Shown piece by piece: positions 1 through 24,314 of a DNA stretch of 28,834 nt (position 1 is its first letter; each line of letters opens with the position of its first letter). Under the pieces are notes generated by a model, which saw nothing but the letters and a program-made list of their open reading frames with translations, was not told the origin of the DNA and did not search any database. The position numbers and the translations under genes were made by a program. The DNA is from Nitrospiraceae bacterium. Its GTDB lineage: Bacteria > Nitrospirota > UBA9217. The stretch is taken from positions 2,779 to 31,612 of the forward strand of contig DMKB01000245.1 in the NCBI GenBank assembly GCA_003454665.1, read 5' to 3'.

Positions 1-2600
1 AATCCATAGTCTGTATATTCCGCCATGATCGGGTCATTCGAGTAGCCGCTTGAGACAATGGCCTTCACGTCCGGATCAAATGCAGCTAATTTCAGGACCG
101 CCTCCTTGCCGCCCATTCCTCCCGGGATCGTGAGGTCCATGATGACCGCGCTGAAGGGCGATCCGGATTCCTTATTTTTCCGATAGACGTCGATAGCTTC
201 TGAACCGTTCTTCGCGAACGCCACGTCATAGCCGAGTTCATTCAACATCGTTCCGGCCACGTTCCGGACAATCTCCTCATCGTCTACGACGAGGATATTT
301 CCGCTGCCCCGAATGGGGCGTTCATCCTCTTCCTTTTCAGCCGGTACCATCTTTTCTGAAGCCCGCAGATACATATAAAATGCCGTACCTGCGCCTAATT
401 TCGATTCTGCCGATATATGTCCGCCATGACGTTTGACGATGGAATATGAGGTCGCCAGACCGAGACCGCTCCCTTTTTGCTTTGTCGTGAAATAGGGGTC
501 GAATATTTTCTGCAGATGATCCTGCGGGATGCCGATACCCTGATCGCGAACCGTTACTCTGGTATAGTTGCCTTTGGCGAGGGGCAACACATCGCCGGAA
601 CCGACAGAAACATTTTCAGCGGTGATCCTGATCGTTCCCCCCTCAGGCATGGCGTCCGCAGCATTGATGATGAGATTGTTGATTACCTGGCTCATCTGTC
701 CTTCATCTACGTCAACGGCCCAGAGGTTCTCGGGAATGGTATACTCACAGGTGACGGAAGAGCCGCGAAGCACGAAGCCGCCGCACTCCCGCAGCAATTC
801 GCCGAGGAAAACCACTTTTTTGACGGGCGCGCCGCCTTTTGCAAAGGTGAGAAGCTGCTGGGTCAGATCTTTTGTCCTGAGCGATGCTTTTTCGGCTTCG
901 TTGAGCATCCGGTACAGGCTGTTGTCAGGCGTGAAATGGGTTTTAACCACGCTGATATTCCCCAGCACGGCAGTAAGGAGATTGTTGAAGTCATGGGCAA
1001 GTCCCCCGGCAAGGGCGCCGAGTGATTCGAGCTTTTGGACTCGTAAGAGCTCTGCTTCAAATTGTTTCTGCTCCATGATGTTCCGGCTGACCGTTGCAAG
1101 CGCTTCAGGCTCGCCGCTCGCCGCGTCCTTTATAAGAAAACCGTTAAAGAGCACGGGAATTTCTTTGCCTGTGGTAACATGCCGGAAGCGGAGTTCGCCT
1201 GACCAGGTGCCGTGTTGTTTCATTGTCGGCAGCACATGGTCACGAAAATACGGCAGGTCATCGGGCGAGAGATAATCCAGCACCGACGTTTGTGTCACGT
1301 CATCAACACCGGCAAGTTCCTTGCCCGCTGTATTGACATACAGAACTGCTCCGTCCAGGGAGGCAATGCCGATAAAATCACTGCTGTTTTCCACGAGCAG
1401 TACTAACTTCCGTCGCTCCTCCTCGGCGCGCTTTCGTTCATCAATCTCGTGTTCCAGTCCTGTTTTCGCCCGTAATAACTCATCGGCATGCTGCCGCGCT
1501 TTCTCCATACGCAAGTGGAATTGCAATATATAGCCGGAGAGGAGTCCGGTGACCAGGAGCCCGGCCGCGAGGATCGCCCATGGCTGCCAGCTCATGCCTG
1601 CTATACCGTGTTTTGGTGAAGGAGCGCATAGTATCTTCCATGTTCGTCCTGCCACGGCAAAAGTCTCCGCGTAGTGCATGCCTGCCGTGAGGTCGGCCTC
1701 GACCGAATGCGGCGTTGCCGTTGCCGCGCGGAGGCGCGATGGGTGAACATACAGAAGACGCCTGCCTTCAGTAGCAGACTCATCGGTCAGAACAATATCG
1801 ATTCCCCGTGGTTGCAGACGGGATATGCTCTTTTCAACCAAATCACCGATCCGGTAGACCCCCAGAACGAACCCTCTCAGGTGCCTGCGCCGGGCTTCAA
1901 CGGAATCCGTGGCCATGCCCTGTCGATAAACCGGTTCAAAGATGAGAACGCCGAATTGCTCCTCTTTTTCCTGTACCAGCCTGATTCGCGCGGTGGCGGT
2001 CTTTAATCCGCTGTCCCGGGATTGTTCAAGTGCCGCGAGGCGCGAGGAGTTCGAGGCGACGTCAAAGCCGAGGGCGTTTTCGTTTCCCTCATAGGGTTCG
2101 ACAAAATAGACGGGATAGTATTCGTCACGGCGGCCGGCCGTCACCATCACACCCTGTTCTTTTCTCTCCGTTATCAGGAAATCGGGATATCCCTCGCTGC
2201 GTGCAGCTGATACGTATGCCGCACGCTTTGTGTGCGGTACGCGGGGTATCCACTCGAGGGCCTGAATTCCTTCAGAGTGCCACAGCAAATACTTTGTGAA
2301 AGTGTGGAACTCGAACCGCTCGACATCGCGGGACGCCGCGTAAAAGGAGGCAATTGCATCGAGTTCGTGCAGGGTATTTTCGAAGGTATTCTTGATGGCG
2401 GAAATACGGTTTTCCGATCCTCGTTCAAAGTCTCCGACGGTCTTTCTTTCTTCCCATCCCCCGGCGGCAATGAACAGAAGGACGGACAGGGTAATGCCCA
2501 TGCACGATACGAGCATCACCATGTACCGCTTCCGTATGAATCCAAATGCCCGGCGCAGCCCACGCTGCAGATTTTGATGCGCAGATTTCTTGATCACCAT
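1..2600 (-). CDS. Membrane hybrid sensor histidine kinase (TM-CHASE-TM-PAS-HisKA-HATPase-REC); 3' end truncated by the window edge
   Basis: Manual translation from ATG at 2600 (AGGTGA RBS-like sequence upstream); the start, middle and end all fall in the same frame. It shows an N-terminal TM, CHASE-type motifs (GIQALEWIPRV, EYYPVYFVEPYEGNENALGFDV), a second TM (WQPWAILAAGLLVTGLL), a PAS domain, H-box LAHDFNNLL, KIFDPYFTTKQKGSGLGL and REC motifs ILVVDDE / MDLTIPGGMGGKEA / IVSSGYSNDP. It is absent from the ORF track because it has no stop codon in the window. Confidence 0.92.
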   Translation of the reverse strand, partial: MVIKKSAHQNLQRGLRRAFGFIRKRYMVMLVSCMGITLSVLLFIAAGGWEERKTVGDFERGSENRISAIKNTFENTLHELDAIASFYAASRDVERFEFHTFTKYLLWHSEGIQALEWIPRVPHTKRAAYVSAARSEGYPDFLITERKEQGVMVTAGRRDEYYPVYFVEPYEGNENALGFDVASNSSRLAALEQSRDSGLKTATARIRLVQEKEEQFGVLIFEPVYRQGMATDSVEARRRHLRGFVLGVYRIGDLVEKSISRLQPRGIDIVLTDESATEGRRLLYVHPSRLRAATATPHSVEADLTAGMHYAETFAVAGRTWKILCAPSPKHGIAGMSWQPWAILAAGLLVTGLLSGYILQFHLRMEKARQHADELLRAKTGLEHEIDERKRAEEERRKLVLLVENSSDFIGIASLDGAVLYVNTAGKELAGVDDVTQTSVLDYLSPDDLPYFRDHVLPTMKQHGTWSGELRFRHVTTGKEIPVLFNGFLIKDAASGEPEALATVSRNIMEQKQFEAELLRVQKLESLGALAGGLAHDFNNLLTAVLGNISVVKTHFTPDNSLYRMLNEAEKASLRTKDLTQQLLTFAKGGAPVKKVVFLGELLRECGGFVLRGSSVTCEYTIPENLWAVDVDEGQMSQVINNLIINAADAMPEGGTIRITAENVSVGSGDVLPLAKGNYTRVTVRDQGIGIPQDHLQKIFDPYFTTKQKGSGLGLATSYSIVKRHGGHISAESKLGAGTAFYMYLRASEKMVPAEKEEDERPIRGSGNILVVDDEEIVRNVAGTMLNELGYDVAFAKNGSEAIDVYRKNKESGSPFSAVIMDLTIPGGMGGKEAVLKLAAFDPDVKAIVSSGYSNDPIMAEYTDYG

Positions 2601-2670: not shown

Positions 2671-5600
2671 TCAGCGGGGGAGAATTTTTTTGAACTTCCC
2701 CACCACTCTGCTGAAATCCGACACGATTTCGTCTGCCAGCATGCTTCCCGTGTAGGTGTAATGCAATTCTATCACGGATTTCACGGTTGTACGGTCTTTC
2801 TCGGTCAGGCCGCGGCTCGCGACGTACGAGGTGTTGATCTTTTTCTCGATCGAGCCATCCCTGTCGAGGACATAAATAACGCCGCCCGTCATGCCGGCGC
2901 CTACATTGTAGCCGACGTCGCCGAGCACCACGACCGTCCCGCCGGTCATGTATTCGCACAGATGCAGGCCCGTGCCTTCGACGACGGCTGTCGCGCCGCT
3001 GTTTCTGACAGCAAAGCGTTCGCCTGCCATGCCTGCGGCGTAGAACTCGCCGCCGGTGGCGCCATAGAGCACCGTATTGCCGACGATCACGTGTTTGTGC
3101 GGCTCTGCAAGGTCCGCGTGGACGATCGCGAGCCTGCCGCCGAACATGCCTTTGCCCACGTAGTCGTTGGCGTCTCCGATAAGGGTAAGAGAAACCCCGC
3201 AATGGTTGAAGGCGCCGAAGCTCTGGCCTGCCGTGCCGCCGAAGGTGAGGCGGATGGTGTCGGGCGGAAGCCCTGTGTCTCGATATTTCCGGGCAATGGC
3301 GTAGTTGATTTTAGCCGGTATGCTTCGGTCAATGTTCCGGATAACATAATTCCGCTCCACCGGCTTGGCAGCGTCGATAGCGGGCAGAATATCCTCGAGA
3401 ATACGGTCGTTCATGGAGGGTGCGGGGTTGTCGTTCCGTGTGCAGGCGCACATGCGTGGGCCCGCGCCGGCGTTGTCAAGGAGCGGCCCGACCTGGATGC
3501 TCCCTGTGCCCTGCTGGGTGACGGCAGGCGACGTGACCAGGAGGTTGCTCCGTCCGATGATCTCGTCCAGGCCCGTTACCCCCATTTCCGAGAGGATTTC
3601 GCGCACTTCCCGGGCAACGGCCCGGAAATAGGTGGTGATGGAATTCACCGTTCCCCGGAACTTCTTTCTGAGTCTTTCGTCCTGCGTCGCGATGCCCGTG
3701 GGGCACAGATTTGAATGGCACTGCCTGGCCATGACGCACCCCGCGGCGATCATGGTGGCGGTGCCGAACCCGAACTCCTCGGCGCCGAGGAGCGCTGCGA
3801 TCACCACGTCCCTTCCCGTGCGCAACCCCCCGTCCACGCGGAGCCGGATCTTTTCCCTCAGCCCGTTGTTCATCAGCACCCGCTGGGTTTCTGCCAGCCC
3901 GATCTCCCAATAGCTTCCCACATTCTTGATGGAGCTGATCGTGGCGGCGCCGGTGCCGCCCTCACAGCCGCTTATCTGCACGATGTCGGCGTAGGCCTTC
4001 GCCGCACCCGCGGCCACCGTGCCGACGCCGGTCTCGGACACGAGCTTGACGCAGACATGGGCATTGGGGTTCGCCTGCTTCAGGTCGTGAATGAGCTGGG
4101 CGAGGTCTTCGATCGAGTAGATGTCGTGGTGCGGAGGAGGGGAGATCAGTATGCGATGGGGCGTACAATGCCTGAGCGAAGCCACGTACTCCGTGACCTT
4201 GATCGCCGGAAGGTGGCCGCCTTCGCCGGGTTTCGCGCCCTGGGCGATTTTGATCTCCAGGTCAGTTGCCGAGGCAATATACGTCGGCGTAACGCCGAAT
4301 CTTCCGGAAGCGATCTGTTTCATGGCGCTGTTTTTCATGCCGAAGTACCTGGCCGGATCTTCGCCCCCTTCGCCGCTGTTGCTCTTTATGCCGAGGCGGT
4401 TGCACGCCTCGGCAATGGTTTCATGGGCCTCAGGAGAGAGGGAGCCCAGTGACATGGCGCCGGTCACGAACCGTCTGAGGATTGCTTCTTCAGGCTCCAC
4501 GTTCTCGACGGGGACAGGCGTCCCCGTTGCATAGCCGAGAAGGTCGCGGAGAGACGCGGGACGGGCCTGTGCTGCCTTGGAGAAGTCTGCATATGCTGCA
4601 GCGTCTCCGCTTCTCATGAATTTGTTCAGGCCCACGACTGTTGGCGCCGACCACGCGTGATGTTCGCCGTCTCTTCTGAATTTCATATCGCCGCCCTCGT
4701 CCAGGGCCGGTTCCGGCGTCCCGTAGGCCAGGTCGTGTCTCTGTACCAGTGATTGCTCGATTGCATTCAGGCCGTGGGCCTCGATGGTGACGGGCGTGTT
4801 CGTGAAGAAAGCTTCGACAAAATCCCGGTTCAGGCACAGGGTATCAAAGAGCTGCGCAGCATGATAGGAGTTGATCGTGGAGATTCCCAGGCGGGCAATA
4901 ACTTTTAAGAGTCCGCTCTCTGTTGCCTGCAGGTAGTGTTGGGCCGCCCTGTCGAATGACAGCGGTATCTGCCCGCTGTCGCATAGATCCTTGATCGTTT
5001 GAAACACGAGATAGGGATGGACTGCCGAGGCCCCGAATCCGACGAGACAGGCAATGTGGTGAACGTCACGCGCTTCACCGGTCTCGACGATGATGCTCGC
5101 CCGGTGCGTCAGGTTTTCGCGGGCCAGAGCCTTGTACGCAGCCGAGAGTGCGAGAAGGGAAGGGACGGCGAGTCGTTCTTTCGCGATGTCTCCATCGGTG
5201 AGGATAATAATTTCCCTTCCGCTCTGTACCGCGTCAATCACGGTTTTCTGGAGTTCAGCAACGGCACGGGAGAGGTCTGCCCCCTCTTTGGGATAGGTTG
5301 TCGAGATTCTGCCGGCGGGAAATTGCTTCTGCGACTCGATCTCCCGGAGTAGAGGTCCTCCAAGCACGGGAGAATCAATCCCGAAGCGGCGCGCATGGTC
5401 GGGCGATGGCTGGAGGAGATTTCGCTTCGGCCCCATGTTGATCCGGAGGGACATGACCATCTTTTCACGGATCGGGTCGATGGGAGGGTTCGTCACCTGG
5501 GAGAAGCGCTGCTTGAAATACCGGAACAGGAGCTGTGGTCGCTCACAAAGCGGCGGGAGCGGGGTGTCGTCGCCCATGGACCAGACCGGCTGCTTGCCGT

Positions 5601-7308: not shown

Positions 7309-10260
7309 TCACGATGAATTCGACAATGCCTGTCGAATTGAATCGCTCAATTCCTTGATCTTAAAGGGCTTGGTTACTACACTCGCGAATCCGTATGTAC
7401 GGTATTCAGCCATGACGGGGTCGTGAGAATAGCCGCTCGACACGATTATCCTGGCATTCGGGCTCGCTTCTATCAGTTTTTGCGCGGCCTCCTTGCCCCC
7501 CATGCCGCCGGGTATGGTTAAATCCATAACGACGGCGTCAAAGGGGGCCCCCTGTTCCTGGGCCGCGCCGTACAGTTCCAGGGCTTTCTCGCCGTTGTCG
7601 GCGAATGCTACGGAAAAGCCCAGGTAGGAGAGCATTTCTCCCGCCACGGTCCTGACCGCGTCCTCATCATCCATAACCAGGACCCTTCCTGTTCCCCTGA
7701 ACAGGGTCTCATCATCGCTCCCGGCAGGTGTCGTCCTTTGCATTGATGCGGGCAGGTAGAGATGGAAGGTCGTGCCGGCGCCCATCTCAGACTCTGCTGC
7801 AATGTGGCCTTCGTGTTTTTTTATGATGGAATATGATGTGGCGAGACCGAGTCCGCTTCCCTTCTGTTTTGTCGTAAAGTAGGGGTCGAATATCTTCGGC
7901 AGGTGCTCCCGCGGCATGCCGATCCCCTTATCACGGATCGATATCCGCACATATTCTCCTTCTTTCAACGGGAGGGCGTCCTGTTGACGAACAACGACAT
8001 TCTCGCAGAATACCTTGACCGTCCCTCCGGACGGCATTGCCTGGCTTGCGTTGATGATCAGATTGCTGATCACCTGGGTTATCTGTCCTTCGTCGATTTC
8101 AGCGGACAACAGGTCCTTGGGAATGAAAAATTTGCACCGTACGTTTGAGCCTCGCAGGGCGAACTTGGCTGAATTTTTCACCAATGCTCCCAGGGAAACG
8201 ATTTTTTTTACGGGCTCTCCGCCCCGGGAGAAGGTGAGCAGCTGCTGCGTCAGGTCCTTGGCCCGGGAAAACGCTTGCCCGGCATCGGTCAGTTTTTCGT
8301 ATACTTTGTCTGCCGGGTCGGCATACATCTTCGCCAGTTCGATGTTTCCCAGAATACCGGTCAGGAGATTGTTGAAATCATGGGCAAGGCCGCCGGCGAG
8401 AAGCCCGACGGATTCCAGTTTCTGCGCCTTGAGCAGTTCGTCCTCCATCTTTTTTCGGAGAATGTGGCGCCACATGCCGTTCATCAGCAGGGTGAGCTGC
8501 TGGATGTCCGATTCATCGTATTCCGCCTCCTTGTTTCCCACGACAGCCACACCCACGACGCGGTCCCCCTCCATGAAGGGCAGGCTCAGCACACGCGCCA
8601 GCGGGACGTGGCCGCCGGGCAGACCTTTTTTTTCAGGATGAGGGGTCGAATAATCATTTATGATGATAGGTCTTTTTTCTCTGACGGCGTCCGCCCAGAG
8701 ACCGGCCTCATCCATCGAAAAATGGAGTGGCTGGTCGACGACGGCGCAGTCCTTCATCGCCGGCGAGTACACGGCATGTGTGGCAAGCGCCGTCCCTTCA
8801 TTGTTCATCAGCCCCGTAAAGCCCATGGTGCTGCCCGTGAGTTTTACGCCCTGTTCGAGCATGAATGATGCAATGTCCTGAATCGAGGCGTCTGTCATGC
8901 TGTTCAGTTGCAGCAAGGCTTTGAGTCGTGCCTCGCTGAGTTTCAGCGCGTCCTCGTGCTGTTTTCGTTCGGTGATATCGAGGGCCGTAAAAATCACCCC
9001 GGAAGACAGGTCCGCGGGATTGATCGGCGTTGACTGGAGGAAGATGTCCAGTATATCGCCATCTTTCCGTTGCCAGCGCGTTTCGACTGATCCCGTTCCT
9101 TTCTTATGAATTTCATCGTATTTGTTTTTGCCGACGCGGTTAAATTCTTCGTCACTGGGATAAATTACCCGCGAGCTTTTGCCGATCAGATCTTGACCGG
9201 TATACCCGAGGAGCGTCTGCATATGGTCGTTTACCCAGCTGAACACCCTGTTATGAACGAGGCCGATGCAGATCGGCGCCGCCTTCAGGAGGCCCTTCAG
9301 GGTCGCCTCACTCTCACGAAGAGCTTCCTGGGACCGTTTGCTCTCGGAGATGTCGTAAATTGTGCCCTGGACAGAGACAGGTTTTCCAAAAGCATCACAG
9401 ACGTTGCGAATTAATTCACGGACCCAACATATCTGCCCATCTTTACGCATGATACGGTATTCCCGATCAGCTGAGAAATCTGGAACGGAACGTATATTCT
9501 CAATGCTTTCATGATTCACGCCCATGTCATCCTGGTGTATTATTTGAATCCAACTTGGATTTCCTGAAAGGAAATCCTGCTCGGTATACCCGGTGATTTT
9601 TTCAACAGCTCCATGAAAGAAATCAGGGGTAAAATCCAAGTTGCCGCTAAAAGCTATTCCTTGAAAATTCTCTATGAATAGGCGGTACTGCTTCTCGCTC
9701 TTCTGCTGCGAGTCTTCGGACTGCCTTCGTTCAAGTTCCGCAGAAGCACGGGAAGCGAATATCCGCAGCGTTGATTCGGCGGTGGCCGTATGTCCGAGCG
9801 GCTTGTCGTCCATGACGACCATAAGCCCGATGGCCCGCTGCGCGGAATCGAACAGGGGTGTGCCGATATAACTCTCGATACCCATCTCGACGAGCAGCTG
9901 ATCATGGGGAAATTGCCGTTGAACATCCTGAGGATAGCAGCGAAGGGTCTGTCCGATCACGTTCTCACAGGGTGAATCTTTCAGGGCGTATTCAAAGTTG
10001 TCGGCTCTCTGGCCGCCGTCGAAGACGGCGACGGTCCTGACATGGTCAGGGGTTTTTTTTGACAGCTCCCCGACAAAGGCGAACCGCGTCCCCAGGCTAT
10101 GGGCGAGATGCTCGACGAGAGAATAAAAAAACGCGTCACCCGTCGCTGCCGAAACTCCTTCCGAGATCGTACGGAGCGTTTTTTCAAGCTTTGTGCTCTC
10201 TGATTCCGATCCGTTGTATTGTTTGGTCAGCTGGTTTTCCGTGCTCTTCGTGTTTTTCAT
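7309..10260 (-). CDS. Cytoplasmic hybrid sensor histidine kinase (GAF-PAS-PAS-GAF-HisKA-HATPase-REC)
   Basis: ORF 7309..10290; ATG at 10260 preferred over the GTG at 10290. N-terminal GAF (FEYALKDSPCENV), two PAS domains, a second GAF, LAHDFNNLL, KIFDPYFTTKQKGSGLGL, VLVMDDE, MDLTIPGGMGGKEA. No TM segment seen. Confidence 0.95.
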   Translation of the reverse strand: MKNTKSTENQLTKQYNGSESESTKLEKTLRTISEGVSAATGDAFFYSLVEHLAHSLGTRFAFVGELSKKTPDHVRTVAVFDGGQRADNFEYALKDSPCENVIGQTLRCYPQDVQRQFPHDQLLVEMGIESYIGTPLFDSAQRAIGLMVVMDDKPLGHTATAESTLRIFASRASAELERRQSEDSQQKSEKQYRLFIENFQGIAFSGNLDFTPDFFHGAVEKITGYTEQDFLSGNPSWIQIIHQDDMGVNHESIENIRSVPDFSADREYRIMRKDGQICWVRELIRNVCDAFGKPVSVQGTIYDISESKRSQEALRESEATLKGLLKAAPICIGLVHNRVFSWVNDHMQTLLGYTGQDLIGKSSRVIYPSDEEFNRVGKNKYDEIHKKGTGSVETRWQRKDGDILDIFLQSTPINPADLSSGVIFTALDITERKQHEDALKLSEARLKALLQLNSMTDASIQDIASFMLEQGVKLTGSTMGFTGLMNNEGTALATHAVYSPAMKDCAVVDQPLHFSMDEAGLWADAVREKRPIIINDYSTPHPEKKGLPGGHVPLARVLSLPFMEGDRVVGVAVVGNKEAEYDESDIQQLTLLMNGMWRHILRKKMEDELLKAQKLESVGLLAGGLAHDFNNLLTGILGNIELAKMYADPADKVYEKLTDAGQAFSRAKDLTQQLLTFSRGGEPVKKIVSLGALVKNSAKFALRGSNVRCKFFIPKDLLSAEIDEGQITQVISNLIINASQAMPSGGTVKVFCENVVVRQQDALPLKEGEYVRISIRDKGIGMPREHLPKIFDPYFTTKQKGSGLGLATSYSIIKKHEGHIAAESEMGAGTTFHLYLPASMQRTTPAGSDDETLFRGTGRVLVMDDEDAVRTVAGEMLSYLGFSVAFADNGEKALELYGAAQEQGAPFDAVVMDLTIPGGMGGKEAAQKLIEASPNARIIVSSGYSHDPVMAEYRTYGFASVVTKPFKIKELSDSIRQALSNSS

Positions 10261-10303
10261 ATCAGATGATTTCCTCACCTCCGCAACCAAGCTTTATGCG
10301 TTT

Positions 10304-10951
10304 TCACCGGAGGGTGCTCCTGCCTGCCAGGAGCTTCACGTTGATAGCCTGTTCAAGCTCCTTCTTGAACGATTCCGTATCGCGAAAATGGAGGACCTGC
10401 AGCCCTTCATTCGATGCACGCTGCACGTTATCGGAGTTGTCGTCTATGAACAGCCCCTCATCGGAGCTGATCCCGATGGCGGCGCATACATCGCTGAAAA
10501 CCGAAAGCTCACGTTTGCTTTTCCTGATCCGATAGGAGTTGAAGATGTACTGAAAATGCTGAAAAAACGGCGTCTTTGCGTTGATCTCATCGAGCCAGTT
10601 CGTCTGGTCACTCAATATCGCAAGGAGCAGACCGCGGGCCTTCAGCCGCTCCACAATGGTGAGCATCTCCGGCCGCAGGACGAACCTCCCAAGTATTTCT
10701 TCCCGTAATTCCTCATCACTGCCGGAGACTCCGGTTTTCCCGCGCAGCGCCGTCCAGTACTGCGATTCATTCACCAGACCCGTTACGTAACCGCTCTCGT
10801 GGATGAGTTCGTCGGCGATACTCCGAAACCGCTCCGGATCGAGGCCGTTCTTCTTCCCGATGGCCAGCAGCCCCTCCCGGAACCCCTCTTCAGCAAGGAC
10901 TCCACCGAAATCGAATATGGCCGCCTTGACGGTTTTGCGCGCTCTCTGCAT
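10304..10951 (-). CDS. HAD-superfamily hydrolase (HAD-IA phosphatase-like)
   Basis: Motif I AIFDFGGVL (DxG variant), motif II ILSD, motif III K in IRKSK and motif IV LFIDDNSDNV. ATG at 10951 chosen; the ORF track starts at 10999. Confidence 0.88.
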   Translation of the reverse strand: MQRARKTVKAAIFDFGGVLAEEGFREGLLAIGKKNGLDPERFRSIADELIHESGYVTGLVNESQYWTALRGKTGVSGSDEELREEILGRFVLRPEMLTIVERLKARGLLLAILSDQTNWLDEINAKTPFFQHFQYIFNSYRIRKSKRELSVFSDVCAAIGISSDEGLFIDDNSDNVQRASNEGLQVLHFRDTESFKKELEQAINVKLLAGRSTLR

Positions 10952-11170
10952 GAGAATGGTCCGCCTGCATCTCCCGTTAACCGCGGTGCTGTTGACCACC
11001 TGATAATCACTCTAAAAAAATAATAGCACAATGCTGGGAGAAAACAGGCAACCCTCGAAATTTTAATCGTTTTTTCCTGTTCTTTGTGATAGAATCGTAC
11101 AACAAAAGTCGTAAGGAAAGGCTTTGCTCTGCTCTTGATACACTTCCAAAAACATAACAGGGGGACAACC

Positions 11171-19093: not shown

Positions 19094-19186
19094 CGGATAA
19101 AAGCGTCGTTGTGTATGCCCACCGCAGGCTGGCTGCTATGTGCGTTCTCCCGGCGATAGGGCGATCCCCTCCATAGTGAATTGACC

Positions 19187-20185
19187 ATGATCCGAAACAG
19201 AAGAATCGTACAGTATTCCCTCATTATCGTTGTATCGTCCCTCCTCATTTTCTCCTGTGCCAGGAAAAGGACGGTGAAAAAAACCGAGACCATCATGGGT
19301 ACGAACGTCACCATTACGGTGGTGGCGGATACGTCGAAGGAGGGAGATGCGGCGATCGGTGCTGCCATGGATGAGATCAGGCGGCTCGACGAGATGATGT
19401 CCCTGTACAAAGAAAATAGCGAAGTCACCCGCGTGAACATGGCGTCGGGAAAACATCCCATAGCGGTATCGCCGGAAATGATCGAGGTCGTGGAGAACGC
19501 CGTCGCCGTAGCGAAGCTGACGGACGGAGTGTTCGATATCACCATGGGCCCGCTAATCGTTCTGTGGCGAATGCGCACCGCAGAAGGGGATATCCCCACG
19601 GAAAAAGAAATCGCCCGTATTCTTCCCCGCGTCAATTATAGGAATATCATCGTCAATAAAAAAAAATCCACCCTCTTTCTCCGAAGACCCGATATGATCA
19701 TCGATCTCGGCGGTGTGGCCAAGGGGTACGCCGCAGACAGGGCGGCAGGAATCCTGAAACAGCATGGCATCATGAGCGCTCTCGTGGCAGTTGCCGGCGA
19801 TATCAGGGCCCTGGGCGCCCGGCCGGATGGGAGTCCCTGGCGGATCGGTGTGCAGCACCCCCGCAAGCCGAAAACAACCCTTACCGTCCTTGACCTCAGG
19901 GACACCTTCATCTCCACGTCCGGCGATTATGAGCGGTTCGTCATCAAAGCCGGAAAACGGTACCATCACATCATCGATCCGCGCACCGGAAAGCCATCAA
20001 CAGGCATCATTTCAGCGACCATCATCGGCGACCGCGGCGCGATCGTCGATCCTCTCACGACGGCACTCTTTGTCCTCGGAAGGGAAAGGGGCATGGAGAT
20101 CGTGAACAAGCTTGGATACGAGGCGGTGGTCGTTGACGAGGACGGAGGGGTGTCGCATACGGCAGGGATCGACGTATCAGAGTAG
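19187..20185 (+). CDS. apbE: FAD:protein FMN transferase (lipoprotein)
   Basis: Lipobox LIFSC, MGTNVTI, DLGGVAKGYAAD, ISTSGDYER and HHIIDPRTG. Confidence 0.95.
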   Translation: MIRNRRIVQYSLIIVVSSLLIFSCARKRTVKKTETIMGTNVTITVVADTSKEGDAAIGAAMDEIRRLDEMMSLYKENSEVTRVNMASGKHPIAVSPEMIEVVENAVAVAKLTDGVFDITMGPLIVLWRMRTAEGDIPTEKEIARILPRVNYRNIIVNKKKSTLFLRRPDMIIDLGGVAKGYAADRAAGILKQHGIMSALVAVAGDIRALGARPDGSPWRIGVQHPRKPKTTLTVLDLRDTFISTSGDYERFVIKAGKRYHHIIDPRTGKPSTGIISATIIGDRGAIVDPLTTALFVLGRERGMEIVNKLGYEAVVVDEDGGVSHTAGIDVSE

Positions 20186-20313: not shown

Positions 20314-21264
20314 TTGAAGAGTTTTGCTCACTACGTAGTCTATTCCGTGTTAAACTTACAGGAGGGTTCGCGCCTTGCGGACGCCGTTGAATTCTTTATT
20401 TACGACACGATAAAGATATTTTTCCTTCTTGCCCTTATCATATTCGTCATATCGATCCTCAGGAGCTATTTCCCGCCTGAACGGACGAAGCGCATCCTGT
20501 CTCATAAAAAGGAATTTATCGGTAACATCCTGGCGGCGTTCCTCGGTGTTGCTACCCCTTTCTGTTCATGCTCCGCAGTACCACTCTTTATCGGATTTGT
20601 TGAAGCAGGGATACCGATTGGCGTGACGTTTTCGTTCCTCATCGCCTCTCCCATGGTGAACGAAGTGGCGGTGGTATTGCTCTGGGGCATGTTCGGGTGG
20701 AAGATTGCTTTGCTGTACATTGCGGCAGGGCTGTCTATCGCCATTATCGGCGGCATAATCATCGGCAAGCTCAAGGTCGAAAAGTGGGTTGAGGAGTATG
20801 TATTCAAGATCCAATCTCTTCAAATACAGCAGGACACGGCGCGGCAGCAGTTCCGGGAGCGGCTCGTCTCTGCGCGGGCCGGTACCGTCGACATCCTGAA
20901 AAGAGTGTGGCTGTTCGTTGTTATCGCCATCGGCATCGGCGGGTTCATCCACGGTTATGTGCCACAGGATTTCCTGGCCCGTTACGCCGGAGCGGACAAT
21001 CCTTTTGCCGTGCCCGTTGCCGTTGCCATGGGAGTGCCCCTGTATTCGAATGCAGCCGGCGTCATTCCCATTGTCTACGCCCTCATGGAGAAAGGCATGA
21101 GCCTGGGGTCCGTACTCGCCTTCATGATGGCGGTGACGGCGCTCTCGCTCCCGGAAATGATTATTCTCAGAAAAGTATTGAAACTGCAACTCATTGGCGT
21201 ATTTGTCGGGATCATGACAATGGCGATTATTGCCGTAGGGTATTTGTTTAATATGATTTTATAA
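20314..21264 (+). CDS. arsP: DUF318/ArsP-family permease
   Basis: Multi-TM; TPFCSCSAVPLF, FLIASPMVNE, GVPLYSNAAG, AVTALSLPEMIIL; TTG start after GGGAG; ars neighbourhood. Confidence 0.85.
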   Translation: MKSFAHYVVYSVLNLQEGSRLADAVEFFIYDTIKIFFLLALIIFVISILRSYFPPERTKRILSHKKEFIGNILAAFLGVATPFCSCSAVPLFIGFVEAGIPIGVTFSFLIASPMVNEVAVVLLWGMFGWKIALLYIAAGLSIAIIGGIIIGKLKVEKWVEEYVFKIQSLQIQQDTARQQFRERLVSARAGTVDILKRVWLFVVIAIGIGGFIHGYVPQDFLARYAGADNPFAVPVAVAMGVPLYSNAAGVIPIVYALMEKGMSLGSVLAFMMAVTALSLPEMIILRKVLKLQLIGVFVGIMTMAIIAVGYLFNMIL

Positions 21265-21273
21265 CCACATATG

Positions 21274-21325
21274 CCACGAAGGCGCCAAGGCGCATAGAAA
21301 AAATCGTGTCATTGTGAATTCGTGG
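21274..21325. repeat. Short imperfect palindrome with 8-mer-unit arms
   Basis: ccacgaa (21274-80) pairs perfectly with ttcgtgg (21319-25); 13/22 identity over the full arms plus 3 G-U-compatible positions. Same cacgaag unit as at 15096. Confidence 0.6.
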
Positions 21326-21346
21326 TTACCATGAGGAGGATTCAAC

Positions 21347-21589
21347 ATGGAAATCAAGGTGCTCGGTCCCGGGTGTGCCAACTGCCAGACCATGGAGGAA
21401 ATGACCAAAACCGCGGTTCAGGAGCTGGGCCTCAGCGCATCCGTCGAGAAAGTGACCGATATCGCGGAGATCGCGAGGCACGGTATTCTCACGACTCCCG
21501 GGCTCATCGTCAACGGCAAGATCAAGCATTCGGGCAAACCGCTGCCAACGCTGGAAAAGGTAAAAGAATTGATCGGATCTGAGGTCTAA
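21347..21589 (+). CDS. Small thioredoxin-family (redox-active disulfide) protein
   Basis: 80 aa; IKVLGPGCANC (CxxC) and GILTTPGLIVNG; GAGGA RBS. Confidence 0.92.
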   Translation: MEIKVLGPGCANCQTMEEMTKTAVQELGLSASVEKVTDIAEIARHGILTTPGLIVNGKIKHSGKPLPTLEKVKELIGSEV

Positions 21590-21707: not shown

Positions 21708-22088
21708 ATGAATGAACTGGTCAGCATATTCAAAGCCCTGTCGGACGAAACAAGGCTCAGGATCGTGAAGCTTCTGGAGCAGGGAGAACTTTGCGTCTGC
21801 GACCTTGTCGCGGCCCTCGGCATGGTCCAGCCCAAAGTGTCCTTTCACCTCAGCGTGCTGAAGGAAGCGGGATTCATCACGGACAGAAAGCAGGGCAGGT
21901 GGATTCACTACCGTCTTGACGATTCCGACATGATGCGAAGAATGCTGCTGCTGTCGGTCTGCGAACGGATTTCAGACGGTGCGGCCGCAGAAGACCGGAA
22001 GCGGCTTTCCCGCTTTCTTCTCAAAAAAAGGCCTCAGGTATCTGTTGTCGACCTGAGAGCCGGGATGAAAGAAAGCCACGGGAGATAA
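21708..22088 (+). CDS. arsR: ArsR-family metalloid-responsive repressor
   Basis: FKALSDETRLRI, alpha3 site ELCVCDL, VSFHLSVLKEAG and RKQGRWIHYRL. Confidence 0.93.
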   Translation: MNELVSIFKALSDETRLRIVKLLEQGELCVCDLVAALGMVQPKVSFHLSVLKEAGFITDRKQGRWIHYRLDDSDMMRRMLLLSVCERISDGAAAEDRKRLSRFLLKKRPQVSVVDLRAGMKESHGR

Positions 22089-22091
22089 TCG

Positions 22092-22517
22092 ATGCTCAAG
22101 GTACTGTTTCTCTGCACCGGAAATTCGTGCAGGAGCCAGATGGCGGAAGGAATCGGGCGAGAGTACGGAAGGGGCCTCATAGAAGTACACAGCGCTGGAT
22201 TACTGCCGGCAGGGGTAAATCCCTATGCGATCAGGGTCATGAACGAGATTGGGATAGATATCTCCGGCCAAACGTCCAAGGCCATCGATGCAAAAATTCT
22301 GGGAGGGATGGATGTGATTATCACGCTCTGCGGCCATGCAGAGCAGCTATGCCCGACAACGCCTCTGGAGAGCAAACGCCTCCACTGGCCCATAGACGAC
22401 CCTGTCGGCACCGTGGGCACGGAGGAGAAGATACTCCGCGAGTTCAGGAGGGCGAGAGACGAAATATCTGCCAAAATTAAGGAATTTCTTCTCAAGGCAA
22501 AGAATGGGCAGGAATAA
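22092..22517 (+). CDS. arsC: Thioredoxin-coupled arsenate reductase (LMWP fold)
   Basis: P-loop CTGNSCRSQMAEG and resolving pair TLCGHAEQLCP; HWPIDDP. Confidence 0.92.
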   Translation: MLKVLFLCTGNSCRSQMAEGIGREYGRGLIEVHSAGLLPAGVNPYAIRVMNEIGIDISGQTSKAIDAKILGGMDVIITLCGHAEQLCPTTPLESKRLHWPIDDPVGTVGTEEKILREFRRARDEISAKIKEFLLKAKNGQE

Positions 22518-22635
22518 TAGTGAAAAAAAGGAAAGGTTTTGCACTTTTTAGGTTGCCGTTATCTTAAAGTGGTAATCTCAAAAATGGAATGGCGTTTGAT
22601 TTTTTCCATCTAAGTCCTTGGAAAGTAAAAAATAT

Positions 22636-22664
22636 TTGCACTTAGAGAAATATACTGGTATTAT
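22636..22664 (+). promoter_or_regulatory. Sigma70 promoter for the HesB-like gene
   Basis: TTGCAC (22636-41), 17-bp spacer, TATTAT (22659-64), with extended TG at 22656-57. Confidence 0.55.
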
Positions 22665-22735
22665 ACAAATATATCGAGTTTCATAACCGTTGGATTACAG
22701 GACAACGTGTTTTGGGATGAAAACAGGGAGGAAGC

Positions 22736-23044
22736 ATGATAAGCTTGACAACGAGCGCAGTAAATAAATTCAAGGAAGTTGTGGAGCAGCAGGGGACCGC
22801 TGGTGATGGCGTGCGGATATTCCTCATGCCAGGCGGCTGAAGGCCTTCCCTGGCTATGGACATAGCCAAAGACGCCCAGCCCGGCGATGCCACTGTTGAA
22901 GAAGACGGACTGCGGGTATTTCTCGAGCAGCGGGCCCAGGAAATGCTCGTGAATACGACCATTGATTTTCAGGACAAGCGCGGTTTCGTACTGAGCGGCG
23001 GTGTGCCGCAAGACTCATGCAGCAGCTCGTCCTGCAGTTGCTGA
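22736..23044 (+). CDS. HesB/IscA-like protein, predicted selenoprotein (102 aa, Sec at codon 35)
   Basis: GGGAGG RBS, then MISLTTSAVNKFKEVVEQQGTAGDGVRIFLMPGG-(TGA 22838-40)-RPSLAMDIAKDAQPGDATVEEDGLRVFLEQ...TIDF...GFVL...CSSSSCSC. The TGA falls at the conserved GG[C/U] position, HesB-like similarity continues in frame on both sides, and a SECIS-like hairpin follows. Confidence 0.88.
22851..22868 (+). promoter_or_regulatory. Candidate bacterial SECIS element
   Basis: Perfect 7-bp stem TGGCTAT/ATAGCCA with a GGAC loop. The stem starts 10 nt after the UGA and the loop 17 nt after it, with G in the first two loop positions. Confidence 0.75.
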
Positions 23045-23109: not shown

Positions 23110-23139
23110 AGCCACGCCCTAGGCGTGGCTCTTTTTTTT
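23110..23139 (+). terminator. Intrinsic terminator after the HesB-like gene
   Basis: agccacgcc-cta-ggcgtggct followed by c and eight T. Confidence 0.85.
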
Positions 23140-23522
23140 CCTCACGGCATAGAGTGGCGATCCCTTTCCGTGCGAGCAGCACCCATTGAAGGCACGGAGA
23201 AGAAACATCACAGATCCAGCTCACGAGCGACGTGCGGCGCGCTACGCGTTATTTCCTCCCCCATACATTCTTCTGCACGGTACGTCACTCTTTTGTTTTT
23301 GCATCTCCATCCATTGGTGTACTTCCGGGAATAAAATCCATCCTTCAGCCGATTGAATAGATCTCTCTTTCCGTCAATACTAAGCTTATCCATAGGAGTG
23401 TGTATTGCATGACCGGGAAGGGAGGGAGTTACCCGTATCAGTTGCTCGGAAAGGTTAATCGGTAATATTTGAAAAAGCGGCAGTAATAGGGAGTGAATTT
23501 TAAAATCGAAAGGAGAGACAGA

Positions 23523-24314
23523 ATGATATATCATAGCCTGTCTGTTAGCAGAAGAGTCACAAGAACGGCGATACGAATTGCTTTGGCGATTCTGGTTGTG
23601 CTGGGTGCCGTGTCGGCAGCCATGGCTGCAAGTGACGCCCAGTCCGCGCTGCAGGTACCCGTCTCCGTACACGCAAGGATAAACAGCAACTCCTGCGACA
23701 ACAGCCCCGGGCCCTACATCACCCTTTCCGGAGAGCTGATGCTTGGAGGGATGGACGGAGCGCTGATTTTCCGGAATAACCGGAAGGGTACGCATACCCA
23801 CACAGAGGACGTCAAGGTGGGCGTCGAAATCCTGCCTCCCGGGGAGACCATCCGCTTTGCCAAGCAGCCGTCCCGTGGGGGAGTGGGCGGTAACCCCTTC
23901 ATCTATGTCCAGTTTCTCGACGATTCAGGGGGCGCCATTTCTGACGAAATCTTCGTCGGCCGCTGTGTTCAGGGACTGGACCAGATGGTCTCGTTCGACT
24001 TTTTCCACAATGCTGTTGCGAACGCATCAATCACAGCCGGCGAATGCAACAACACCTCCGGTCCGTACATCACCCTCTCCGGTGAGCTGATACTCAGCGG
24101 AATACAGGCAAAACTCATCTTCCGGAACAACGAGGACGGTCCTCACGAATACGAGAAGGACGTCGAAGTCGGCGTCGTTATCCTGCCCCCCGGGGAGACC
24201 ATCAGTTTTGCCAAACAGCCACCTCAGGGAGGAGCGGGCGGTAATCCGCTCATCTATTTTCAGTTCGAGGACAGCGGTCCGGAATTCTTTATGGGACGGT
24301 GCACTCAGCTGTGA
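23523..24314 (+). CDS. Secreted hypothetical protein with two tandem ~90-aa Cys-bracketed repeats
   Basis: AAGGAG RBS; signal peptide ending SAAMA; repeats start at 23694 and 24045, with 51/76 aligned residues identical by hand count. Confidence 0.85.
   Translation: MIYHSLSVSRRVTRTAIRIALAILVVLGAVSAAMAASDAQSALQVPVSVHARINSNSCDNSPGPYITLSGELMLGGMDGALIFRNNRKGTHTHTEDVKVGVEILPPGETIRFAKQPSRGGVGGNPFIYVQFLDDSGGAISDEIFVGRCVQGLDQMVSFDFFHNAVANASITAGECNNTSGPYITLSGELILSGIQAKLIFRNNEDGPHEYEKDVEVGVVILPPGETISFAKQPPQGGAGGNPLIYFQFEDSGPEFFMGRCTQL

Follow-up and report, generated by a model that had tools for sequence, protein, structure and literature searches.

A predicted HesB/IscA-fold selenoprotein encoded next to arsC in a Nitrospirota genome

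HesB-like selenoproteins have been recorded in selenoproteome surveys (PMC1794560), and a 2026 inventory places them under the TIGR01911 model with the motif UxGP (PMC13188914). A HesB-like selenoprotein of Methanococcus maripaludis has been identified by mutagenesis and 75Se labelling, and its function was stated to be unclear (PMC11097638). HesB-like genes have also been described in arsenic-resistance (ars) operons, namely orf7 of Bacillus sp. CDB3 (PMC4562236) and a hesB gene of Exiguobacterium (PMC8779447), and in both cases their function was untested. Among the papers searched, we found none linking HesB-like selenoproteins to arsenic.

Here, we analyzed a 28,834-nucleotide stretch of DNA (hereafter, the window) from a Nitrospirota metagenome-assembled genome (MAG; 388 contigs, 85.7% complete), in which a hidden HesB/IscA-like selenoprotein gene had been predicted from the nucleotide sequence. 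Positions 22736–23044 of the window are, with high probability, best explained as a whole by one gene for a 102-residue selenoprotein of HesB/IscA fold. HesB-like selenoproteins as a kind are already known; the Nitrospirota branch is unannotated and differs from them in motif, model membership and ars association.

The in-frame UGA codon and its hairpin

The gene is located on the forward strand at 22736–23044, including its stop codon, TGA 23042–23044. From ATG 22736 it runs through 34 sense codons to a TGA at 22838–22840 (codon 35) and then through 67 more sense codons. Its translation reads ...VRIFLMPGG-U-RPSLAMDIAK... and ends in CSSSSCSC. A ribosome-binding site, GGGAGGA, is present at 22726–22732, and an AGGAGG-like site was found at the equivalent place in nearly all of 20 orthologues. 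Downstream of the gene, an intrinsic-terminator-like hairpin (23110–23130) is followed by a T run (whole feature, 23110–23140). A hairpin at 22851–22868 (TGGCTAT-GGAC-ATAGCCA) lies within the coding sequence, separated from the UGA by a 10-nt spacer; it has a perfect 7-bp stem (22851–22857 with 22862–22868) and the apical loop GGAC (22858–22861). Gene, internal TGA, terminator and hairpin had all been described in the original prediction and were confirmed. The gap between the upstream arsC-like gene and the selenoprotein gene is 218 nt and contains a promoter-like site identified by consensus match only (TTTGCA, 18 nt, TATTAT, with TG; 22635–22664, forward strand). Three 7-nt inverted-repeat pairs at 22599–22672 (e.g. 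ATATTTG/CAAATAT) overlap this site; they could be an operator, the case for an ArsR operator being too weak to make.

To see how the TGA column behaves among relatives, we consider three sets of sequences. Forty related genomes, searched in all six frames, yielded 22 orthologues with 57–74% identity, each of which has exactly one in-frame TGA. In the orthologue loci that were fetched and aligned, the TGA column is identical in 20 of 20 and is embedded in PGG-U-[S/R]PSLAMDIAK. When a profile was run against 400 genomes from the phylum, the TGA form was detected in 55 of the 63 sampled genomes of the window's Nitrospirota family, and several other families also had it. Cys forms, which were seen in other Nitrospirota families, started only at lower scores. 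The dN/dS ratios (Nei-Gojobori) were 0.13 for codons 2–35 and 0.17 for codons 47–92, and thus both halves are under purifying selection and protein-coding. For the predicted read-through, the conservation of the TGA across orthologues is the decisive evidence.

Two matches may be mentioned for their layout. In one genome (G061), which had four matches in all in the phylum profile search, two HesB-like genes, one of the Sec form and the other of the Cys form, occur in tandem on contig C28 (locus L052, 3004–3285 and 3327–3635). In another (G303:C24:27346–27627, locus L054), two TGA codons were reported within the match, one of them at the Sec column in the context GGG-U-GPS, whereas the other could be either a second Sec codon or the stop that ends the gene.

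The spacing rule for bacterial SECIS elements comes from studies of E. coli fdhF. In the window, as in bacterial SECIS elements, the stem-loop is located just 3' of the UGA, its loop starts with G, and selection is detected at the RNA level. Hairpin codons 41–45 (GCT ATG GAC ATA GCC) are each represented by one codon in 19–20 of the 20 sequences, while 3–5 codons are used at other four- and six-fold degenerate sites. The dS value over codons 37–46 is reduced from about 1.4 to 0.39, and the clustering of frozen codons over the hairpin had a permutation p of 0.004. When 29 sequences including distant families were examined, the stem was paired in 99.5% of cells. In three of the 29 sequences, both partners of one stem pair are substituted, turning G-C into A-U with two coordinated amino acid changes (Ala to Thr and Ala to Val), and U-G wobbles occur at two other stem pairs in distant relatives. 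Because the three changed sequences form one clade, the change is probably a single compensatory event, and because the hairpin is invariant within the close family, the covariation support amounts to this one clade. The predicted minimum-free-energy structure has this hairpin as its core. However, the single-sequence fold energy did not differ significantly from that of shuffled sequences (z = -1.28), and an Rfam scan of the window found no family at the gathering score, so the RNA case rests on comparison. In the mechanism we propose, the hairpin at 22851–22868 would recruit SelB and Sec-tRNA(Sec) to the UGA at 22838–22840.

The predicted selenoprotein implied Sec machinery elsewhere in the genome, which was looked for and found. 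selA (592 bits), selB (372 bits) and tRNA-Sec (59.9 bits) are located together on contig C146 (tRNA-Sec, 5114–5208; selB, 7580–9466; selA, 9734–11122), and ARAGORN assigned the anticodon TCA to this tRNA. The selD gene is broken between the ends of two contigs (C227:5626–6264 and C155:5–487); its N-terminal piece contains one in-frame TGA, and SelD itself is probably a selenoprotein in this organism. Contig C146 also carries an ordinary Cys-containing HesB/IscA paralogue beside the sel cluster, about 3 kb from tRNA-Sec (1656–1970, forward strand; 1501–1815 of locus L039). It has the pattern GGGCCGSQ...GGGSCGC and scores 47.3 bits with PF01521.

In the 400-genome sample, the TGA form was found only in families in which selA was also found. 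No selA was detected in any genome of six families (f3, f5, f8, f9, f10 and f17; 174 genomes), and no TGA form was listed for them; five of the six (162 genomes) had no selenoprotein match, and f3 had three weaker ones. Within the window's own family, a selA match was absent in nine TGA-bearing genomes, all of which are MAGs with 63–96% completeness.

An alternative is that the TGA is a true stop, so that the region would represent a pseudogene, a sequencing error, or a 34-aa peptide followed by a 62-aa protein translated from ATG 22856. ORF calling with translation table 11 indeed listed at 22736–23044 only a 62-aa ORF (22856–23044), and public protein sets contain only such pieces. These are 62-aa C-terminal ORFs in NCBI and ENA, with four matches in a word-indexed search, all of them fragments; an exhaustive profile search of a 1.84-billion-protein library returned C-terminal pieces of 55–66 aa and stubs ending at residue 34 (34–71 aa). 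Truncation by gene callers had been anticipated in the original prediction, and the libraries bear it out. A true stop is difficult to reconcile with a TGA column kept in more than 60 independent genomes, with purifying selection on both halves, which jointly make one IscA fold, and with the hairpin being conserved at synonymous sites in an organism that has Sec machinery. In addition, there is no conserved ribosome-binding site before ATG 22856, where the orthologues have TGAAGCCC. We consider a true stop very improbable, and decoding of the UGA as selenocysteine, as originally predicted, nearly certain on this comparative evidence. The use of TGA as a genome-wide sense codon was also considered and was ruled out: the selenoprotein gene itself ends on TGA before the terminator. 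Thus, context and not a changed code tells the two TGAs apart.

Fold and family membership

The predicted HesB/IscA identity was supported at the level of both domain and fold. The protein passed Pfam PF01521 (Fe-S_biosyn) with 34.8 bits against a cut-off of 26.3. An AlphaFold model based on a 20-sequence alignment had a pLDDT of 81.8, with tail residues 93–102 disordered (pLDDT below 50), and Foldseek matched it to E. coli IscA and SufA with probability 1.00 and TM 0.72–0.74. In a profile search of PDB sequences, the Sec column corresponded to the ligand Cys of the GGC motif in Aq_1857, HI1723 and E. coli IscA, in agreement with the earlier placement of Sec at the first Fe-S-ligand Cys, and the tail aligned with the C-terminal Cys motif of the same three proteins. 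Homologues with TGA and homologues with Cys at the Sec column were both looked for and both found, the latter including GGCC(G)PS proteins of the protein library and the A-type carriers in PDB (GGCSG). Compared with GGCSG, the window protein has a one-residue deletion, and Pro replaces Gly.

Both the GGU-RP context and the Cys tail had been described as atypical. This is correct for the Arg, which follows Sec only in this genome and in one relative; Ser is found there in 19 of the 20 aligned orthologues. The rest is better viewed as the signature of a subfamily: as read from the alignment, the family motif is GG-U-S/R/G-P-S-L, U being the predicted Sec, and the tail is C-x4-C-x-C. In the window protein this tail is C95-x4-C100-x-C102 (23018–23041), and its three Cys are invariant in the family. 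A predicted soft selenolate/thiolate ligand site, composed of Sec35 and the flexible tail with C95, C100 and C102, is strongly supported.

Curated models for related families were also examined. For TIGR01911 (HesB_rel_seleno; cut-off 66.35 bits, motif UxGP), the window protein had no match at E ≤ 10, and three of the 20 orthologues matched at E about 0.004. NF038090 (IscA_HesB_Se) aligned protein residues 1–101 with model positions 1–100 of 101 in hmmscan, with 40 bits against a cut-off of 85. This cut-off was reached by no orthologue (best E 1.6e-12) and by no tested ars-linked relative, and a search of the genome with the NF038090 profile missed the window gene, probably owing to the in-frame stop codon. 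A search of the entire MAG with NF041239 (CC/Se motif family; cut-off 40 bits) returned nothing at E ≤ 10, and the A-type carrier model TIGR00049 was not passed (49.5 bits against 58.8). Since TIGR01911, NF038090 and NF041239 all failed, we assign these sequences to a separate subfamily of the HesB/IscA superfamily, with the predicted Sec at the homologous position.

Gene neighborhood and possible function

Upstream of the selenoprotein gene and on the same strand, an ApbE gene (19181–20185) precedes a gene for an ArsP_1-type permease (20314–21264). The latter shows a weak likeness to the efflux transporter SaoE (NF040736, 123.9 bits against a cut-off of 325) and also resembles SO_0444-type Cu/Zn efflux proteins. 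Directly after the permease is a gene for a Thioredoxin_3 protein of 80 aa with a GCANC motif (21347–21589; sequence starting with MEIKVLGPGCANC). An overlapping 86-aa ORF in another frame (21322–21582) had no family match and was dismissed as spurious. Next are an ArsR/SmtB metalloregulator gene (21708–22088) and a thioredoxin-type arsC-like gene (LMWPc; 22092–22517), which scored 169.8 bits with TIGR02691 against a cut-off of 174.3. Neither of the ORFs downstream of the selenoprotein gene (23208–23801, reverse strand, and 23493–24314, forward strand) had a family match, and neither arsD nor arsA was seen in the window.

When 20 orthologous loci of the family were inspected with 1.5-kb flanks, arsC was the adjacent 5' gene, in the same orientation, in 12 and was not seen directly upstream, within the 1.5 kb fetched, in the other eight. 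In other Nitrospirota families, arsC or arsR was located within 3 kb, in differing orders, in six of nine Sec-form loci. In 12 of the 20 loci, a co-oriented gene for an ABC-transporter ATPase follows the selenoprotein gene at 450–1100 nt downstream (e.g. L021, L030 and L038), and ApbE directly precedes arsC in five of those 12 loci (L027, L030, L031, L034 and L036).

The closest full-length Cys homologues in the exhaustively searched protein library have the pattern GGCC(G)PS...CC. Six of the eight closest are encoded between arsD and arsA; of the remaining two, one is beside a SAM methyltransferase gene and one is on a contig too short to tell. In a maximum-likelihood tree, a branch with support 99/96 separated all of the Sec forms, together with every arsD/arsA-linked Cys form, from the ordinary paralogues, including C146:1656–1970, and Sec and Cys forms were interleaved within the ars-linked clade. 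These phylogenetic data strongly support the assignment of the selenoprotein to a HesB-like clade of arsenic-resistance operons. The clade is an informal one, for which we found no curated model, and both the tree grouping and the adjacent ars genes place the window protein in it.

Neighborhood and phylogeny together suggest, by guilt by association, an arsenic-linked role of some sort, and we are slightly inclined to favor it. The adjacency to arsC and the arsD/arsA-linked relatives make such a role no less likely than a conventional Fe-S carrier function. It should be noted, however, that the selenoprotein gene has a promoter-like site and a terminator of its own, which speaks against the arsenic link, as do the eight loci with no arsC seen directly upstream and the window's lack of a visible arsD or arsA. 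The most likely mode of an arsenic-linked role, although one we hold as plausible rather than probable, is As(III) binding at the Sec/Cys site. As(III) made by the neighboring ArsC would be bound there, and it would then be buffered or passed on towards efflux. With this mode, the protein would not be a general Fe-S carrier. Our most specific proposal is tentative: the protein might be an IscA-fold chaperone or buffer for As(III) that contains Sec and would take arsenite from ArsC to efflux, and its Cys relatives might act likewise in an ArsD-ArsA relay.

The original prediction had offered an Fe-S carrier or a redox protein. The Fe-S carrier is now one option only, as neighborhood and phylogeny tie the subfamily to arsenic-resistance operons, a connection absent from that prediction. 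As an A-type Fe-S carrier, the selenoprotein would bind a [2Fe-2S] or [4Fe-4S] cluster with Sec35 and the C-terminal Cys, and a possible variant is that it keeps up Fe-S delivery or repair under arsenic or oxidative stress. Such a carrier would account for the PF01521 match, the predicted IscA/SufA fold, the Sec exactly on the first ligand Cys, the C-terminal C-x-C as in IscA and the near-threshold TIGR00049 score; since the ligand pattern of A-type carriers is retained, the protein may bind Fe-S. Nevertheless, every curated A-type carrier model failed, the Gly after C-S in GGCSG is replaced by Pro next to a one-residue deletion, and the genome has a separate ordinary paralogue. Moreover, the adjacent genes are ars genes and not isc, suf or nif genes, and the closest relatives are flanked by arsD and arsA. 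On balance, we regard the Fe-S carrier function as rather unlikely.

A selenol/thiol redox protein is still less probable in our view. It might, for example, be a dedicated reductant that recycles the neighboring ArsC, with Sec35 and one of the tail Cys forming a selenenyl-sulfide; the disordered, Cys-rich tail could reach Sec35 for this purpose. Most bacterial selenoproteins are redox proteins (PMC13188914), and the gene directly follows that of a thioredoxin-coupled type of ArsC in the 12 loci described above. However, a thioredoxin fold and a UxxC/CxxU motif are both absent from the protein, a Thioredoxin_3 protein is already encoded in the window, and the location of the Cys relatives between arsD and arsA points to As(III) transfer and not As(V) reduction.

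Significance and comparison with known systems

The analysis describes a Sec-bearing, unannotated branch that is widespread in anaerobic Nitrospirota, occurs next to arsC and falls, according to the tree, in one clade with Cys forms embedded between arsD and arsA. Two long-noted groups are thereby joined, the HesB-like selenoproteins, which have been without a function for about twenty years, and the HesB-like genes of ars operons, and a testable hypothesis is provided in the form of a soft-ligand site for As(III). If the As(III) chaperone proposal is true, it would supply a function for the uncharacterized HesB-like genes found in ars operons and provide a case of a dedicated protein in which selenium serves as a ligand for arsenic. 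There is also an annotation gap. In public protein sets the family is represented only by pieces of 34 and 62 aa, and none of the curated models captures it; surveys of selenoproteomes and of arsenic resistomes therefore miss it.

Among described selenoproteins, those of the TIGR01911 family share with the window protein a length of about 100 residues, a relationship to HesB/IscA and a single Sec at the first-Cys position; as in the window gene, the SECIS element is directly 3' of the UGA, and Cys homologues exist. The window protein differs from them in having GG-U-S/R/G-P-S and not UxGP, in its C-x4-C-x-C tail, in its occurrence in Nitrospirota and in its ars linkage. The NF041239 family likewise consists of small IscA-fold-like (seleno)proteins, of which the window protein is not a member by model. 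IscA, SufA and ErpA (PDB 1S98, 1R94, 2D2A, 1X0G, 1NWB and 2APN) have the same fold (TM 0.64–0.74); the Sec is aligned with the equivalent of their Cys35, and the C-terminal C-x-C is shared. The window protein has about 20–25% identity to these A-type carriers, carries an extra tail Cys and fails all equivalog models.

ArsD binds As(III) through vicinal Cys pairs; its fold is thioredoxin-like and unrelated to that of HesB. By analogy, the vicinal Cys pairs of the Cys relatives (GGCC...CC), which are encoded beside arsD and arsA, might be compared with those of ArsD.

The Firmicute ars HesB genes, compared here by published description, resemble the window gene in that a gene of HesB fold is found among ars genes. 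The ars1 operon of Bacillus sp. CDB3 has the order arsRYCDAT-orf7-orf8 (PMC4562236) and that of Exiguobacterium arsR-arsD-arsA-hesB-arsB (PMC8779447), and in the metagenomic Cys relatives of the window protein the order is arsD-hesB-arsA. Whereas the Firmicute proteins contain Cys, the window protein is predicted to contain Sec, and its partners are arsC, arsR and an ArsP-type permease gene in place of arsD and arsA.
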